From Bacillota bacterium (GTDB lineage Bacteria > Bacillota > Sulfobacillia > UBA3575 > DUQP01), in the NCBI GenBank assembly GCA_012837735.1, contig DUQP01000031.1, positions 16,581-80,580 on the forward strand: 64,000 nucleotides of DNA, read 5' to 3'. The notes beneath the pieces are model-generated. The model saw nothing but the letters and a program-made list of their open reading frames with translations, had not been told where the DNA came from and made no database searches. How positions within the stretch are numbered: the first letter of the stretch is position 1; every line of letters begins with the position of its first letter. Both the position numbers and the translations under genes were made by a program. Positions 28,943 through 64,000 of this stretch are shown here, in pieces.

Positions 28943-29628
28943 TGCGCGCGGGCATTGGCAGCCAGGTGTGGAGTGGGATTGTCAGTTTGGTTTTTCCTGT
29001 CCGCACCACTTGTTGGGGATGCGGCGGGGAACTGGCGGCACAGGAGCCCTTGTTCTGCCTTGTTTGCCGGCAAGGCTTTGCCGCCGGCCTGGCCGGCTGG
29101 GACTTGACAGATGACTTGATCGCCCGGGCCTGGGCCGTGGGGCCTTATCAAGGCGGGCTGCGCCGCGCTGTCCTGGCATACAAGTATAGCGGCAAAGAGT
29201 ATCTGGCGGAACCTTTGGGCCGGTTGCTGGCCGCCCGCTTGGCAGGGGCGGTTCCCGGGTCGTGCCAGGTGATCCCGGTCCCATTACACCGCACCAGACG
29301 CCGGCAAAGAGGTTTCAACCAGGCAGAGGCCTTGGCCCAAGTGTTAGGAAAGGAATTGCGGCTACCGGTGCGGGCGGATATCCTCGTGCGGCGTCAGGCC
29401 ACGCGCCCCCTTAGTACACTTAATCACGATAATCGCCACCAGGAGTTGCGCGGGGCATTCCATGTCGCCTGGCCGGGTTTGCCGGGGACCCCGGTTTTGC
29501 TGGTGGATGATGTTGTGACAAGTGGTGCGACCGTGCACGAATGCGCGGGGGTCTTGCGGGCCGCTGGTTATGGGCCGGTGTATGTAGCGACAGTTTGTGC
29601 TGTTACGGATAATTGCCAAAGAGCTTAG
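28939..29628 (+). CDS. comFC: ComF family protein (ComFC-like phosphoribosyltransferase)
   Basis: N-terminal Cys cluster CWGCGG...CLVC, PRTase motif VLLVDDVVTSGAT. Confidence 0.85.
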   Translation: MMRAGIGSQVWSGIVSLVFPVRTTCWGCGGELAAQEPLFCLVCRQGFAAGLAGWDLTDDLIARAWAVGPYQGGLRRAVLAYKYSGKEYLAEPLGRLLAARLAGAVPGSCQVIPVPLHRTRRRQRGFNQAEALAQVLGKELRLPVRADILVRRQATRPLSTLNHDNRHQELRGAFHVAWPGLPGTPVLLVDDVVTSGATVHECAGVLRAAGYGPVYVATVCAVTDNCQRA

Positions 29629-29733
29629 TTTTTTCCACAGGTTGGGCAGGAAAAAAACGCCTTGTGACGAATCGTATAATTGGTCTTATTCAGGATTGGG
29701 TATCTCATAGATTTGTACCTTGTTGTTCTGATG

Positions 29734-29777
29734 GTGTTGCCGGATCCCTCCGGCAGCACCATTTTTCGCGTTTTTTT
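29734..29777 (+). terminator. rho-independent terminator downstream of comFC
   Basis: 11-bp stem GTGTTGCCGGA-tccc-TCCGGCAGCAC then CATTTTTCGCGTTTTTTT. Confidence 0.8.
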
Positions 29778-29988
29778 AACATTTAGCGGGACAACGACTG
29801 ACGGGAAACGACAATCCACAAAATAATCCCCAGCCTAAACCCCTGGAAACGGTGTTATTAACAGACTTATCCACATAATACACAAGCATTTTTATCCCCA
29901 GCCTGGGTTTATCCCCTGCAACTTCACATAATATTGGATCACCCAAATAGCCTCTGTCGAAGCATGACATTTGGAGAAGGCAGGATTC

Positions 29989-30018
29989 TCTTGCCAGGAA
30001 GCGGAATACTATTATTAT
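29989..30018 (+). promoter_or_regulatory. candidate sigma-A promoter for hpf (TTGCCA ... TATTAT)
   Basis: -35 TTGCCA 29989-29994; overlapping TATTAT hexamers at 15 or 18 nt spacing; about 25 nt upstream of the hpf RBS. Confidence 0.35.
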
Positions 30019-30045
30019 CAGTCCACGCCGGAAGGAGATGAGACT

Positions 30046-30561
30046 GTGCAGATTAACATCCGGGGCAAGAGCATTGATATCACGCCTTCTTTGCGCGCGT
30101 ATGTCGAGAAGAAGGTGGGCAAAATCGGCAAGTATTTCGCAGGACTGGATCTCAACTGTCAGGTTGCTTTGAGTGTTGAGAAGGACCGCCACATTGTCGA
30201 GGTCACATTGCCTGTAAACGGTTGGCTGCTGCGCGGTGAAGAGGAAAGCGAGGATATGTACAGTTCCGTGGATTTGGTGGTCGATAAGCTAGAGCGTCAG
30301 ATCCGCAAGTATAAGACTCGTTTGAATCGCAAGTTGCGGCGGATGGAAAAACCGGAGGTGCAGGCGGTGCCGGATGACGATCAGCAGGTCGTGAAAATCA
30401 AACGCTTCACGTTCAAACCGATGCCCGTCGATGAAGCGATCATGCAAATGAACATGTTGGGGCATGATTTCTATGTGTTCACCAACTCCGAAAGTGAACA
30501 AATCAATGTGCTCTACCGGCGGCGTGATGGCAACTATGGTTTGATCCAGCCAGATTTCTAA
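30046..30561 (+). CDS. hpf: ribosome hibernation-promoting factor (long HPF, YvyD)
   Basis: VQINIRGKSIDITPSLRAYVEKKVGKIGKYF N-terminal domain plus C-terminal dimerisation domain; GTG 30046 after GGAAGGAG (ORF track's upstream extension is unlikely). Confidence 0.9.
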   Translation: MQINIRGKSIDITPSLRAYVEKKVGKIGKYFAGLDLNCQVALSVEKDRHIVEVTLPVNGWLLRGEEESEDMYSSVDLVVDKLERQIRKYKTRLNRKLRRMEKPEVQAVPDDDQQVVKIKRFTFKPMPVDEAIMQMNMLGHDFYVFTNSESEQINVLYRRRDGNYGLIQPDF

Positions 30562-61737: not shown

Positions 61738-62484
61738 ATGGCGGAAAAAGTTTGTGTCATTACCGGTGGTGCCAACGGCATCGGCTTGGCTACGGCGCGG
61801 ATGTTGGCGGAGCAGGGCGAGATCGTAGTGTTGGCGGATTGGGATGAAGAGGCTTTAGCGCGGTCCGAACAGGAATTGGCTGCCGCTGGAGCCAAAGTGT
61901 TGGCGGTTCCGACCAATGTGGCAGAGAAAGAATCTGTGCAGGCCCTATTTGCAAAGGTGCGCCAAGAATATGGGCGCCTGGATGTGCTGGTGAATTCAGC
62001 CGGCATCTGCCGGTTGACTCCGATCGACGAGTTGTCCGTGGAAGAATGGGATCTGATGATGGATGTGAACCTGAAGGGCACATTCCTGTGCAGTCAGGCT
62101 GCCGTGCCATTTTTCAAAGCACAAAAAAGCGGCAACATCGTTAATATTTCATCGGTGGCCGGGAAGGTGGGCGGCATAGCCGTCGGGCCGCACTATTCCG
62201 CCTCCAAAGCAGGCGTCATTTGCCTGACAATGTCTTTTGCCAAATACTTGGTGAAAGATGGGGTGCGGGTGAATGCCGTGGCACCGGGGCCGATTACCAC
62301 TAATATGACCGATGAGTGGCCGGATGACGTGCGGGAGCGCATGGGGCGCAATATCCCGCTCACGGGCAGGATGGGCACTGTGGAAGAGGTTGCGAATGTG
62401 ATTATGTTTCTGATTTCTGATCAATCCGCCTTCATCACAGGGGAAATCATAGATGTGAACGGCGGCGTGTTAATGGATATCTGA
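61738..62484 (+). CDS. SDR-family oxidoreductase (FabG-like)
   Basis: TGGANGIG, NSAG, YSASKAG catalytic tetrad context; AGGAGG 7 nt before ATG. Confidence 0.85.
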   Translation: MAEKVCVITGGANGIGLATARMLAEQGEIVVLADWDEEALARSEQELAAAGAKVLAVPTNVAEKESVQALFAKVRQEYGRLDVLVNSAGICRLTPIDELSVEEWDLMMDVNLKGTFLCSQAAVPFFKAQKSGNIVNISSVAGKVGGIAVGPHYSASKAGVICLTMSFAKYLVKDGVRVNAVAPGPITTNMTDEWPDDVRERMGRNIPLTGRMGTVEEVANVIMFLISDQSAFITGEIIDVNGGVLMDI

Positions 62485-62501
62485 ACATGACAGGCGGTAA
62501 A

Positions 62502-62535
62502 GGACAGCCTTTTTCAAGGCTGTCCCTCCTTTTTC
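62502..62535 (+). terminator. rho-independent terminator
   Basis: GGACAGCC-tttttcaa-GGCTGTCC then CTCCTTTTT. Confidence 0.7.
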
Positions 62536-62608
62536 AATGTGCAAAAATCTGCTGGCCGCAACTGCTCAAACCAGAAACGATTTTTGCTTTCACTGGATCG
62601 GTTATTTA

Positions 62609-62872
62609 TCACTTAAAGAATCCGCCAAATAAAGGGATACTTTCCATGCCGGATGCTTTTGAACTCGATGTATTGGGTAGAATTAGGATTGCAAGTGCTG
62701 CAACCGCAGCAATAGCCCATCCTTTATAAGCTTTTTTCTTTGACATAGATCTCTTGGTCTTCTTTCCTTGATTTATACGCTGTTCCATTTCAAAAACAAC
62801 CTTATCGCTCATGACTGGTTTTTCATACTTTTTCTTAAATAATCTTAAATTTTTATCATCATAATCAGACAA
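62609..62872 (-). CDS. small single-TM membrane protein; putative (possibly 3'-truncated) anti-sigma factor cotranscribed with the sigma fragment
   Basis: starts right after the sigma ORF stop: TGA-AAGGAGG-tccttgtta-TTG (ORF track's ATG 62899 lies inside the sigma ORF); charged N-domain, TM AIAAVAALAILIL, very short ectodomain; region GC about 33%. Confidence 0.45.
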   Translation of the reverse strand: MSDYDDKNLRLFKKKYEKPVMSDKVVFEMEQRINQGKKTKRSMSKKKAYKGWAIAAVAALAILILPNTSSSKASGMESIPLFGGFFK

Positions 62873-62888
62873 TAACAAGGACCTCCTT

Positions 62889-63260
62889 TCAACCAACATT
62901 ATCCATACATTTGAGTTTTTTCAGGCCTCTATATAATCTGCTCTTAATCGTACTAAGATTTTCCCCAAGTACATATGCAATTTCGTCAAGTATAAGACCT
63001 TCAAAAAACTTCAACTGAATTACTGTTTTGTCTTTATCAGACATAGAATTTAATGCTCTCATTAAATCTATATTTTCATATGTATCTTCGACCTGAGGCT
63101 CTGTGAAACTTTCATCATCAATAGAATTTATTGCTTTCATGTCTAAACGTCTATAGATTTCATTCATCATGATCCTATATACCCAGGTCTCTGCATATTC
63201 AATATTTTTGAGAGAATCGCTAGTGTTATCAGTTGAGGATGAAAAGCGCTGAAATCTCCC
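62889..63260 (-). pseudogene. 5'-truncated sigma-70/ECF-family sigma factor (end of region 2 plus region 4 only)
   Basis: ...KNIEYAETWVYRIMMNEIYRRL (region 2.3/2.4-like) and DKDKTVIQLKFFEGLILDEIAYVLGENLSTIKSRLYRGLKKL (region 4 HTH); the in-frame open reading frame runs to a TGA at 63261-63263 with no start codon before Met-Met at 63170; region 2.1-2.2 is absent; AT-rich coding sequence abuts GC-rich DNA at about 63233. Confidence 0.5.
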
Positions 63261-63375
63261 TCAGCCAGCCAGCCGGGAACCATGGCGGGGGCAATTGCGC
63301 TGATGGCGACGCAGGCCAGCGCCAACTCCGCGACAGCGGAAACATGGCTGTCACGGCCTATTTCAGCAAATCTCT

Positions 63376-63561
63376 TCAGATCTGCTTCAATCCTGAGATA
63401 TGCAGGGTAGTCCCCCCCAGGCTGATTGCTGCCACCACCGCTGGCAGGGAGGCGCGCAGCCTTGCCGCTTCATTCCCTTGGGTCTTTTCGTAGTAGCACA
63501 TTATCCGGGCAAAATCACCCCGCAGGTAGGCAAGTTCCATTTCGTATTGCAGCCGTGACAT
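63376..63561 (-). CDS. 61-aa hypothetical ORF (could be a detached N-terminal remnant of the sigma factor: LRGDFARIMCYYEK resembles sigma-70 region 1.2/2.1)
   Basis: GC-rich; starts 3 nt after the upstream HTH ORF stop; speculative. Confidence 0.25.
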   Translation of the reverse strand: MSRLQYEMELAYLRGDFARIMCYYEKTQGNEAARLRASLPAVVAAISLGGTTLHISGLKQI

Positions 63562-63564
63562 TTC

Positions 63565-63837
63565 CTATGTCACCATACTGAGAATCTCAGCGGGGTTATT
63601 GGCTGGCATGGGCATGGAAGTAGCCTCAAAAAGACGGACCAGTTCGCAGGACAGCGCTTCTAACGGGTGTTTTTTCTCTTTACGCAAATCCCCTGGTTTT
63701 TCGACATCAGCGGGAATCATCCACGCCCGTCCGTATTTTGGGCGCGGGGGATCCTCCGGGCGGCCAGAAGCCGCTGCCCCCGCCGGAGGGAAACGCCCCC
63801 ACTTTTCAGCAGCTTCTGATGCTGAAATGTATCCCAT
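63565..63837 (-). CDS. small helix-turn-helix protein of the Xis/HTH_17-like family common in Firmicute integrative elements
   Basis: MGYISASEAAEKWG...GRPEDPPRPKYGRAWMIPADVEKPGDLRK follows the recurrent pattern M.YLSIKEAAEKWG...GRIPGA..FG..W.IP.DAEKP.D.RK; start taken at the internal Met (ORF track start 63921 adds 28 aa). Confidence 0.45.
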   Translation of the reverse strand: MGYISASEAAEKWGRFPPAGAAASGRPEDPPRPKYGRAWMIPADVEKPGDLRKEKKHPLEALSCELVRLFEATSMPMPANNPAEILSMVT

Positions 63838-64000
63838 CCTTCCGTAGGCCTTTCTGTTGGAAATTATGTCCTTATTATAGTCGTTTGAGCGACGTACTTT
63901 AAAGAACTGTAAGACACGCATCCCTGTTTTCCGACGGTGAAACCCAGGTTTGAAGTTTTTCTTTTTTATTCAAGGAGATTTTCCAAGCGGCGGATTCGCC

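Follow-up and report, generated by a model that had tools for sequence, protein, structure and literature searches.

At the edge of a 64,000-nt stretch of DNA from an uncultured high-GC Bacillota species (the window), base composition falls sharply and a sigma factor gene, a small membrane-protein gene and a helix-turn-helix (HTH) gene lie in pieces. The original prediction described this patch as a decayed mobile or horizontally acquired element. This raises the questions of what was acquired, whether any of it still works and how it came to lie in the chromosome. We located the following features in and around the patch, where L020 denotes a contig that holds the same region in reverse orientation:

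62450..62487, plus strand: right-hand copy of an imperfect direct repeat of 38 nt (87%), formed by the 3' end of the intact SDR gene
62502..62535, plus strand: intrinsic-terminator-like hairpin and T-run downstream of the SDR gene
62536..62608, no strand: spacer of 41% GC, unlike the sigV-rsiV donor-type locus
62609..62872, minus strand: rsiV' remnant, an 87-aa ORF (TTG 62870-62872, TGA 62609-62611), assigned by RsiV alignment
62889..63231, minus strand: sigV' remnant, codons ~77-187 of a 187-aa SigV-type ECF sigma factor, assigned by Pfam, NCBIfam and alignments to relatives
63222..63236, no strand: recombination joint where low-GC sigV DNA meets the GC-rich regulator remnant, set by the limits of homology
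63233..63837, minus strand: regulator pseudogene, N-terminal ~47% of an HTH_17/TPR-like/LuxR-type regulator, assigned by frame-repaired homologue alignment
63838..63905, minus strand: native 5' region of the regulator remnant with a Shine-Dalgarno (SD) sequence and a promoter-like site, conserved upstream of the homologue L040
63966..64000, minus strand: last 11 codons and TAA of an ABC-F ribosomal-protection-type gene, the remainder lying beyond the window
L020 6494-6531, beyond the window: left copy of the 38-nt repeat, fused to a thiolase pseudogene

The sharp GC drop past the SDR terminator was confirmed, with 33.7% GC across 62609-63232 against 59.5% across 1-62535 and 32.0% in 62889-63232. 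The lowest 500-nt segment reached 0.322 GC, which lies over 6 SD under the mean of the window (0.592, SD 0.043). The hairpin at 62502-62525 is followed by a T-run and resembles an intrinsic terminator. Composition and truncated genes support foreign, horizontally acquired DNA, and the truncations together with disabling lesions support its decay. In the spacer no homology to the sigV-rsiV donor-type locus was found. Strains differ there by substitutions at 62536, 62552 and 62584; further differences lie in the terminator region at 62508 and 62529-62530.

The sigma and anti-sigma remnants

On the minus strand the sigma frame reads ...DSLKNIEYAETWVYRIMMNEIYRRL...STIKSRLYRGLKKLKCMDNVG* and covers the end of region 2 and the whole of region 4. 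In Pfam the fragment matched Sigma70_r4_2 (8.8e-12; 44.9 > 25.7) and Sigma70_r4 (5.6e-10; 39 > 24.1), and the same search gave no match to region 2 (PF04542), which all full-length relatives carry. The top NCBIfam match was SigV (1.8e-27); its score of 95.9 bits lies below the NF053879 cut-off of 190, a shortfall expected of a fragment. The remnant is 86% identical in amino acids and 84% in nucleotides to its nearest full-length relative (P0001, L017), the protein alignment spanning sigma residues 80-186 of 187. The N-terminal ~76 codons, most of region 2 among them, are missing. Region 2 of sigma factors is required for core binding and -10 recognition. As had been noted, the frame runs open upstream to a stop (TGA 63261-63263) and contains no plausible native start. 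The 5' truncation and region 4 of the proposed sigma factor piece were borne out. An exact look-up of the 93-aa NCBI sigma ORF returned no record; the 92-aa version matched.

The rsiV' remnant corresponds to about codons 1-90 of a 301-aa RsiV-type anti-sigma factor and is 74% identical to residues 3-90 of the L017 anti-sigma. It keeps the cytoplasmic anti-sigma segment and the transmembrane (TM) helix; the entire extracytoplasmic DUF3298 domain is gone, and no further rsiV homology was found in the window beyond 62612. It gave weak matches to DUF4179 in Pfam and to RsiV in NCBIfam, where RsiV was the sole match, at a score of 29.8 that is far below the cut-off of 250. The small single-TM ORF of the original prediction is therefore anti-sigma-derived, but it is not an intact small gene, as it holds only the first 90 of 301 codons.

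The predicted sigma/anti-sigma junction TGA-AAGGAGG-N9-TTG is present and is the same as the native sigV/rsiV junction in L017. This native operon encodes a 187-aa sigma factor with regions 2 and 4 and a 301-aa DUF4179+DUF3298 protein on a contig of 36.8% GC. DNA homology to it is limited to 62612-63221, at 84% identity, and the fragment is free of internal stops and frameshifts.

SigV-RsiV has been described as a lysozyme-sensing ECF sigma/anti-sigma pair in Bacillus subtilis, Clostridioides difficile and Enterococcus faecalis (PMC4183432, PMC5014341, PMC9044953), in which the extracytoplasmic domain of RsiV binds lysozyme (PMC5014341). The remnants share the gene order and the tight arrangement of sigma stop, SD and anti-sigma start of the native operon, and their nearest full-length relatives show the RsiV architecture DUF4179+DUF3298. 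However, the window holds an internal ~610-bp fragment only; the extracytoplasmic domain of ~210 residues is missing from the anti-sigma piece, and ~76 N-terminal residues are missing from the sigma piece. From its sequence, the pair is predicted to be incapable of acting like SigV-RsiV. With most of region 2 gone from the sigma piece and the lysozyme-binding domain gone from the anti-sigma piece, the fragment is presumably inert, a doubly truncated and putatively non-functional piece of debris from a foreign sigV-rsiV operon.

The regulator pseudogene and its joint to sigV'

The HTH ORF (118 aa) and a 61-aa ORF upstream of the sigma remnant, both found where the original prediction had placed them, are pieces of one decayed GC-rich regulator gene from a family of ~430 aa. 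Its 3' half has been replaced by sigV' DNA. Two fixed frameshifts, a +1 in the G-run 63796-63800, confirmed against the DNA of a homologue, and a -1 in the A-run 63736-63739, compensate each other, and an in-frame TAG (63565-63567) separates the 61-aa ORF from the HTH ORF. Two other homopolymers vary in length by strain, 63412-63418 (G7/G8) and 63287-63291 (C5/C4). With the frame repaired, the regulator has 37 relatives, the closest at 69% identity and several with a coverage of 100%, and the repaired stretch WGVSLRRGQRLLAARRIPRAQKYGRAWMIP aligns colinearly with them. The longest relatives extend ~230 residues further, into a LuxR-type HTH. The 5' region carries the SD GAAAGG (~63849-63854) and a TTTAAA-18-TATAAT promoter-like site (63903-63874).

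The 61-aa ORF had been considered as the displaced sigma N-terminus. This assignment was rejected, as its LAYLRGDF motif is invariant across the HTH_17/TPR-like/LuxR regulator family and lies in frame with the HTH ORF across the TAG. The HTH ORF had in turn been regarded as Xis-like. As called, it gave no Pfam match; the repaired regulator matched HTH_17 (4.4e-5; 24.1 < 27, the Pfam cut-off), TIGR01764 (16.4 < 28.8) and the PHROG excisionase family (1.7e-4), all scores staying below the cut-offs. This HTH_17/excisionase-type motif, which occupies the first ~50 residues, is the feature shared with Xis/HTH_17 proteins of integrative elements. In contrast to these, members of the regulator family carry, fused to this HTH, a long TPR-like stretch and a LuxR-type HTH, and an adjacent integrase is absent within 10 kb on either side (L020, L021, L052-L054). 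We therefore consider the ORF the N-terminus of a ~430-aa regulator and not an Xis.

At the joint the minus strand reads ..CATCCTCAACTG|ATAACACT|AGCGATTC.., where the last regulator homology is ..FHPQL and the first unambiguous sigV homology is AGCGA. The ~8 nt of ATAACACT between the clear homologies are ambiguous, and microhomology cannot be called there because the nearest donor relative, at only 84% identity, is too diverged. This sharp joint supports the claim of a recombination scar inside a single reading frame. For annotation, these results mean that three pipeline-named ORFs are debris of pseudogenes and should be taken neither for regulators nor for markers of mobile elements: the 'sigma-70 family RNA polymerase sigma factor' (HHT01932.1, 93 aa) and two hypothetical proteins.

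The islet and its ABC-F gene

The segment 62536-64000 is the right-hand third of an islet of ~4.15 kb (L020 6532-10680). It adjoins the 3' end of the SDR gene, and its surroundings otherwise consist of core genes (uvrB-uvrA-uvrC-...-2-hydroxyacid dehydrogenase-SDR), with YitT between uvrC and the 2-hydroxyacid dehydrogenase. The SDR gene ends in ..DVNGGVLMDI* (stop 62482-62484), and the two copies of the 38-nt repeat bracket the islet. On the far side a frameshifted thiolase fragment meets a second, orphan SDR tail at the shared VN(G/A)G-coding microhomology ATGTGAACGSCGGCGTG; the flanking repeat is the tail of an SDR gene attached to a thiolase fragment and has no recognisable att core.

An integrase and an att or tRNA site had been expected just past position 64,000. 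Instead, the ABC-F gene, a thiolase_C fragment and HEAT, Fer4, MarR, IclR and POR genes follow there, and neither an integrase, recombinase, relaxase, T4SS or phage gene nor a tRNA was found in the islet or in the 10 kb that flank it on each side. The proposed check against mobile-element databases likewise gave no nucleotide match for 62536-64000 among 72,556 plasmids and 50,697 phages. Rfam searched over the islet at a permissive threshold gave no match. The only transposase belongs to a strain-specific IS256-family insertion, which lies with an 8-bp TSD inside the sigma fragment of one strain.

The ABC-F gene is intact. It encodes 549 aa from an ATG at L020 7552 (568 aa according to gene-callers) with two ABC cassettes (PF00005 x2 and PF12848) and scores above the NCBIfam cut-off for ribo_prot_ABC_F (NF000355, 535.5 > 380). 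The best named subfamilies were CplR (656.1 < 780) and Vga (581.2 < 725); as both scores are under the cut-offs, the protein belongs to neither of them. Proteins of other genomes, e.g. of Defluviitalea raffinosedens, share 85-94% identity with it. Its close relatives occur in at least three unrelated contexts, and their nucleotide homology comprises the ORF and a leader of ~310-400 nt. Against the plasmid collection the module gave distant Vga/ABC matches only. A common origin in which sigV-rsiV travelled with ABC-F in the donors was rejected, because the close ABC-F relatives have other neighbours; the two low-GC pieces therefore need not stem from one donor segment.

The ABC-F leader folds with z = -5.6 and ends in an SD-sequestering hairpin and U6 immediately before the ATG. 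For cplR, a leader architecture with uORF-terminator attenuation was shown experimentally (PMC10201436). Like the CplR/Vga-type ARE ABC-F proteins of that study, the islet gene encodes a two-cassette ABC-F and has a leader ending in an SD-sequestering terminator hairpin with a U-run; unlike in CplR, the uORF consensus MR[I/M] was not identified in the leader. Expression would be induced by uORF/terminator attenuation. As the islet's only intact gene, ABC-F is its putative working cargo, of a predicted antibiotic-resistance type, and the islet may have been retained because the protein would protect the ribosome from PLSA-type antibiotics. For resistome ecology, this would mean that an intact, attenuator-controlled ARE-type ABC-F gene is fixed in a core chromosomal locus, with near-identical alleles in co-resident low-GC Clostridia and no recognisable vehicle, a modest but concrete case of resistance-type genes spreading independently of classical mobile elements. 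In L020 the ABC-F ORF shows 2.9% divergence, which may reflect true exchange of alleles or a consensus blended with a co-resident 91-92% allele from the same sample (L033).

Origin of the islet

We favour, with a probability of about 0.78, a mosaic islet free of mobility genes and built by illegitimate or short-homology recombination. Its pieces, which differ sharply in composition, are a donor-type SDR tail with terminator, a 610-620-bp internal sigV-rsiV fragment of low-GC clostridial origin, the GC-rich HTH_17/TPR-like/LuxR regulator gene, reduced to its promoter and N-terminal half and broken by frameshifts and a stop, the ARE-type ABC-F with its attenuator leader as an intact module of ~2.1 kb, and the frameshifted thiolase fragment joined to the orphan SDR tail. 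Small genomic islets arising by homology-facilitated illegitimate recombination (HFIR) have been reported (PMC3240628). As in these, the foreign DNA here lacks mobility genes, its joints are sharp and lie inside ORFs, one side is set in a conserved host gene (SDR), and the other joint falls at the short shared ATGTGAACGSCGGCGTG. In contrast to these, the mechanism here follows from the end state only, and no pre-insertion allele was recovered in searches of GTDB representative genomes or JGI metagenome contigs, in which the best matches to the SDR protein reached 41% and 40% identity, respectively, none of them close. As no empty-site relative was found, insertion polarity, donor and order of events are inferred from this one end state. 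The islet could have formed by HFIR with the SDR gene as anchor and the other end at the VNGG microhomology, or through a circular intermediate with Campbell-type insertion via the same short homology.

An assembly artefact, i.e. a chimeric contig or sequencing-error frameshifts in intact genes, would fit the observations that every frameshift in the regulator remnant lies in a homopolymer run, that two such runs vary among assemblies and that several short-read contigs end ~78 nt inside the ABC-F 3' end. However, 20 or more contigs assembled from many different samples (JGI, ENA, NCBI and Logan assemblies) show the same arrangement, with 99.4-100% identity across independent assemblies, so that the patch is not a misassembly, the alternative the original prediction had wished to see excluded. 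The junctions, both fixed frameshifts and the TAG recur unchanged in 10 or more aligned assemblies from differing samples and pipelines, among them contigs as long as 312 kb, 829 kb and 833 kb. Moreover, sequencing error could not end a 33% GC sigV fragment inside a 57% GC gene, which leaves this explanation hardly credible. The patch is genuine but ordinary and does not overturn current knowledge. It is also very improbable, if slightly less so, that the truncated pair is a working module by which a resident ECF sigma factor would be regulated through decoy or dominant-negative action. Both reading frames are open, the anti-sigma piece retains a strong SD (AAGGAGG-N9-TTG), the promoter-like site of the upstream regulator remnant could read through, and comparison with the nearest relative gave low dN/dS values (0.084 and 0.248). 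These low values are consistent with recent capture and are by themselves no proof of deadness, yet they mostly reflect divergence between functional ancestors. The sigma piece has no dedicated start or SD, its possible start being an internal ATGATG that the intact relative shares, no second sigV or rsiV copy was found in the window as a target, and one strain persists with the IS256-family element inside the sigma piece. The islet is present in every sampled strain, and the strains are almost clonal (about 99.98% identical) and thus too uniform to show constraint, so that population data are silent on selection on the fragments.

That the mosaic is instead the decayed remains of an integrative element (ICE, IME, transposon or prophage) whose integrase, Xis and att site lie just outside the window appears unlikely. 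Foreign composition, truncated genes, the excisionase-type fold at the regulator N-terminus and the direct repeat around the islet would suit such an element, and the IS256-family insertion marks a site tolerant of mobile DNA. Nevertheless, the insertion is secondary, the HTH stems from a regulator family rather than a small Xis, the repeat joins a gene tail to a thiolase at a coding microhomology with no att core beside a recombinase, and mobility, transfer and phage genes, tRNAs and plasmid or phage matches are all missing from the regions and collections named above. Decay of the region was supported and mobility genes were not found; the islet is at most a remnant that has lost them, possibly derived from a larger mobile element through their later deletion. 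The 38-nt repeat could instead have been left by an in-situ microhomology deletion that joined a thiolase gene to a former SDR paralogue.

More tentatively, and less likely than not, the islet may represent a gene-sized capture in which the ABC-F module and stray fragments of other genomes entered a core locus by way of very short homologies and without any mobility gene, possibly via a Campbell-style circular intermediate. If true and general, microhomology capture would be a measurable route of resistance-gene flow between distant Firmicutes in anaerobic digesters. The VNGG-coding stretch common to the thiolase and the SDR gene measures 14-38 nt, and the ~2.1-kb ABC-F-plus-leader module shows 90-92% nucleotide identity between unrelated low-GC Clostridia and this high-GC Bacillota species.

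The sigV-rsiV fragment at the window edge

The low-GC edge at 62536-64000 belongs to an islet (6532-10680 of L020, the same region reversed in another assembly, which covers DNA past the window end). Judged by its sequence, the islet is a mosaic of gene debris lacking mobility genes around one working ARE-type ABC-F gene, and a new instance of a familiar type of feature. The original prediction of a decayed mobile or acquired element was right about foreign, decayed and recombination-scarred DNA and did not hold for the Xis, the displaced sigma N-terminus and the integrase nearby.

The sharp GC drop was confirmed, with 33.7% at 62609-63232 and 32.0% at 62889-63232 versus 59.5% over the first 62.5 kb. 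The lowest 500-nt GC (0.322) lies more than 6 SD under the window mean (0.592, SD 0.043). The expected terminator 3' of the SDR gene, the right-hand border gene, was found as a terminator-like hairpin (62502-62525) with a T-run. Only one other stretch of the window, 29501-30250, has a 500-nt GC below 50% (0.468-0.478).

On the minus strand, the sigma frame reads DSLKNIEYAETWVYRIMMNEIYRRL...LSTIKSRLYRGLKKLKCMDNVG*. In the domain profile search it matched Sigma70_r4_2 and Sigma70_r4 above their cut-offs and gave no match to region 2 of sigma-70; the nearest NCBIfam model was SigV (1.8e-27). The frame stays open 5' into GC-rich DNA as far as the TGA at 63261-63263, which bears out the proposed 5' truncation with retention of region 4. 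After the sigma stop follow AAGGAGG, 9 bases and a TTG (62870-62872) starting an 87-aa ORF with a single hydrophobic helix; both the junction and the small single-TM ORF are present as claimed.

Relatives of the sigma piece obtained by protein search are full-length (160-190 aa), all contain region 2 and are at most 86-87% identical. The best of them, P0001 (187 aa), is encoded on a contig of 36.8% GC (L017), directly 5' of the gene for a 301-aa DUF4179 and DUF3298 protein with RsiV architecture. Nucleotide homology between the window and this operon covers 62612-63221 only (84%), and at the protein level it spans residues 80-186 of the 187-aa sigma and residues 3-90 of the 301-aa anti-sigma. 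Because both homologies are confined to an internal stretch, the low-GC patch is, by this comparison, an internal fragment of about 610 bp of a sigV-rsiV operon with both ends cut. About 76 N-terminal residues, most of region 2 among them, are missing from the sigma piece, and the anti-sigma piece lacks the entire extracytoplasmic domain, which in RsiV is the lysozyme receptor (PMC5014341, PMC4183432). The loss predicted for the sigma 5' part stood, and the presumed complete small anti-sigma protein proved to be the first 90 of 301 residues only. Within the window no second sigV or rsiV copy was found, and the fragment contains no internal lesions. Compared with L017, dN/dS is 0.084 for the sigma piece and 0.248 for the anti-sigma piece. 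These low values and the intact frames fit a capture that would be recent relative to the divergence from L017, and are no proof of function.

Most likely, the sigma/anti-sigma fragment is without function. Going by the established domain functions of the sigma-70 family, a sigma piece without most of region 2 cannot bind core polymerase or recognize the -10 element, and the anti-sigma piece would be unable to sense lysozyme because its outer domain is gone. A role of the truncated pair as a decoy or dominant-negative regulator found no support and is very improbable. In L054 (JGI 3300053716), a further locus of the species, the sigma piece carries at window 63030-63037 a strain-specific IS256-family element of 1,492 bp (L054 10375-11866), which encodes a 396-aa Transposase_mut/MULE protein and shows imperfect terminal inverted repeats and an 8-bp target duplication (GTCTTTAT).

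A decayed regulator upstream of the sigma piece

Two ORFs in one frame and several lesions were located upstream of the sigma piece:

63565-63921: 118-aa "HTH" ORF
63376-63561: 61-aa ORF, same frame as the 118-aa ORF, one TAG between them
63796-63800: +1 in a G-run, confirmed by DNA comparison with the homologue locus L040
63736-63739: compensating -1 in an A-run
63565-63567: in-frame TAG
63412-63418 (G7/G8) and 63287-63291 (C5/C4): homopolymer runs that vary in length between otherwise identical strains

As called, the 118-aa ORF had no match in the domain profile search. A neighbouring frame within it reads GVSLRRGQRLLAARRIPRAQ, and frame splicing yields a regulator, MGYISASEAAEKWGVSLRRGQRLLAARRIPRAQKYGRAWMIPADVEKPGD..., of 203 aa, which falls just below the cut-off for HTH_17 (4.4e-5). 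The repaired protein has 37 relatives with up to 69% identity, several at 100% coverage, and is colinear with them in the alignment, in which LAYLRGDF is invariant. In the longest relatives about 230 further residues follow, leading into a LuxR-type HTH (family length about 430 aa); one relative is annotated as TPR_MalT and another as CsgD-family. The window retains the native promoter/SD region, which is conserved in L040, and about 47% of the coding sequence. Homology stops at ...EGDFSAFHPQL, a few bases from the start of the sigV homology (63222-63236).

According to the alignment, the supposedly Xis-like HTH ORF is the N-terminal domain of this regulator rather than an excisionase. The 61-aa ORF, formerly proposed as the displaced sigma N-terminus, is likewise rejected in that role, being the middle of the regulator with the family-invariant motif.

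In L020 and L023, G8 and C5 create a 131-aa ORF that runs through the GC-rich/low-GC joint up to the ATG of the sigma fragment. Among the 37 relatives listed, none combines the N-terminal HTH with the LuxR HTH of the C-terminus, and several HTH-bearing ones on long contigs have unrelated tails from about 230-260 aa, near the end of the window copy. This shared end may be a recurrent breakpoint or merely reflect fragmentary data. The homologue in L040 (6001-6777) abuts a convergent MalT-like gene; L041 (289-984) was also compared.

The ABC-F gene and the region beyond coordinate 64000

The DNA past the window end contains the following features:

stop at window 63966-63968: intact ABC-F gene, 568 aa by gene-callers, 549 aa if started at the ATG of L020 7552
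upstream of the ABC-F gene: low-GC region of about 600 nt
about L020 6494-6870: GC-rich thiolase pseudogene fragment spanning about residues 225-375, with 3 or more frameshifts
further out in L020: HEAT, Fer4, MarR, IclR, pyruvate:ferredoxin-oxidoreductase-type and HpaB genes

In place of the integrase or att site anticipated just outside the window, the ABC-F gene, the thiolase remnant and metabolic or regulatory genes were found. The 10 kb to each side contain neither an integrase nor a recombinase, relaxase or phage gene, no tRNA was found near the islet and no Rfam family over it, and 62536-64000 had no nucleotide match in plasmid or phage collections.

The ABC-F protein scores above the cut-off of the NCBIfam 'ribosomal protection-like ABC-F' equivalog (535.5 > 380) and stays under the cut-offs of the nearest named families, CplR (656 < 780) and Vga (581 < 725). 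Many relatives with 85-94% protein identity, including Defluviitalea raffinosedens and biogas-fermenter contigs, occupy at least three unrelated gene neighbourhoods; their nucleotide homology to L020 (90-92%) is limited to L020 7089/7162/7184-9202, a stretch made up of the ORF and 310-400 nt of leader. This leader shows strong structure (z = -5.6) and ends with CCUCUCCGG...CGGAGGGG-U6 right before the AUG, where a predicted hairpin sequesters the SD. Such a layout was experimentally shown to control cplR (PMC10201436). The uORF consensus MR[I/M] described for CplR (PMC10201436) was not seen in the leader. Besides the SD-sequestering terminator, L020 7255-7552 contains short uORFs, e.g. MKARYLQKMHS* and MHFFL*. 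The ABC-F gene is the sole intact, plausibly selected gene of the islet.

Between L020 7495-9201 and L053 11302-13008 (another locus and strain of the species) 50 sites (2.9%) differ, all confined to the ABC-F ORF; the flanks differ by at most 0.4%. The sample of L020 also contains an allele of another organism (L033) with 91-92% identity, and several Logan contigs of the species begin within the 3' end of the ABC-F gene, about 78 nt in. Either alleles were exchanged with co-resident bacteria, or consensus sequences were mixed in metagenome assembly.

Assembly, borders and origin of the islet

Exact look-up in assemblies from JGI, ENA, NCBI and Logan, made from different samples, returned 20 contigs with the 92-aa sigma ORF and 13 with the 2-hydroxyacid dehydrogenase, some as long as 312 kb, 829 kb and 833 kb. 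The same arrangement is seen in all contigs that extend past the SDR gene, and a JGI contig of 4.65 kb matches the window at 100% identity across 4,047 bases. In the source TPA MAG the sigma ORF has the accession HHT01932.1. Over the 1.5 kb of the edge region the contigs are 99.4-100% identical; variants are 2 homopolymer lengths, substitutions at 62508, 62536, 62552 and 62584, and the loss of 2 nt at 62529-62530. Identical junctions in independent assemblies of different samples exclude the misassembly that the original prediction had wanted checked, and the islet is fixed in an uncultured Bacillota species of high GC.

The islet is flanked by a direct repeat of 38 nt (87% identical) at L020 6494-6531 and L020 10681-10718 (window 62450-62487). 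Its right copy coincides with the end of the intact SDR gene (..DVNGGVLMDI*), the left one with the end of the thiolase fragment, which reads 28 residues (not shown) followed by VLMDI*; the last thiolase codons are replaced by an orphan SDR tail, joined at a shared VN(G/A)G-coding stretch. On the 3' side of this tail lie a small hairpin and then the HEAT gene in convergent orientation. In the simplest reading, the SDR and HEAT genes would have been convergent neighbours, and the insertion of 4.15 kb between them would have duplicated the SDR tail. This could have happened by homology-facilitated illegitimate recombination (concept in PMC3240628), with the anchor in the SDR gene and the illegitimate joint at the microhomology, or by a single crossover of a circular intermediate via the same short homology. 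An in-situ microhomology deletion between the thiolase gene and a lost SDR paralogue is also a possibility, since an SDR protein search of GTDB representative genomes and JGI metagenome contigs found no empty-site relative. We infer insertion with SDR-tail duplication as the origin. That the islet documents resistance-gene capture via very short homologies between distant Firmicutes is a speculative proposal which we consider rather doubtful.

Between the IclR gene and the islet, L020 4700-6455 forms a block of intermediate GC (47-49%) with a MarR gene, a 78-aa ORF and a 188-aa Fer4_16 ORF that overlaps an 84-aa HEAT-repeat ORF. The latter two resemble a split or truncated epoxyqueuosine-reductase-like gene, and the block may be an older foreign patch.
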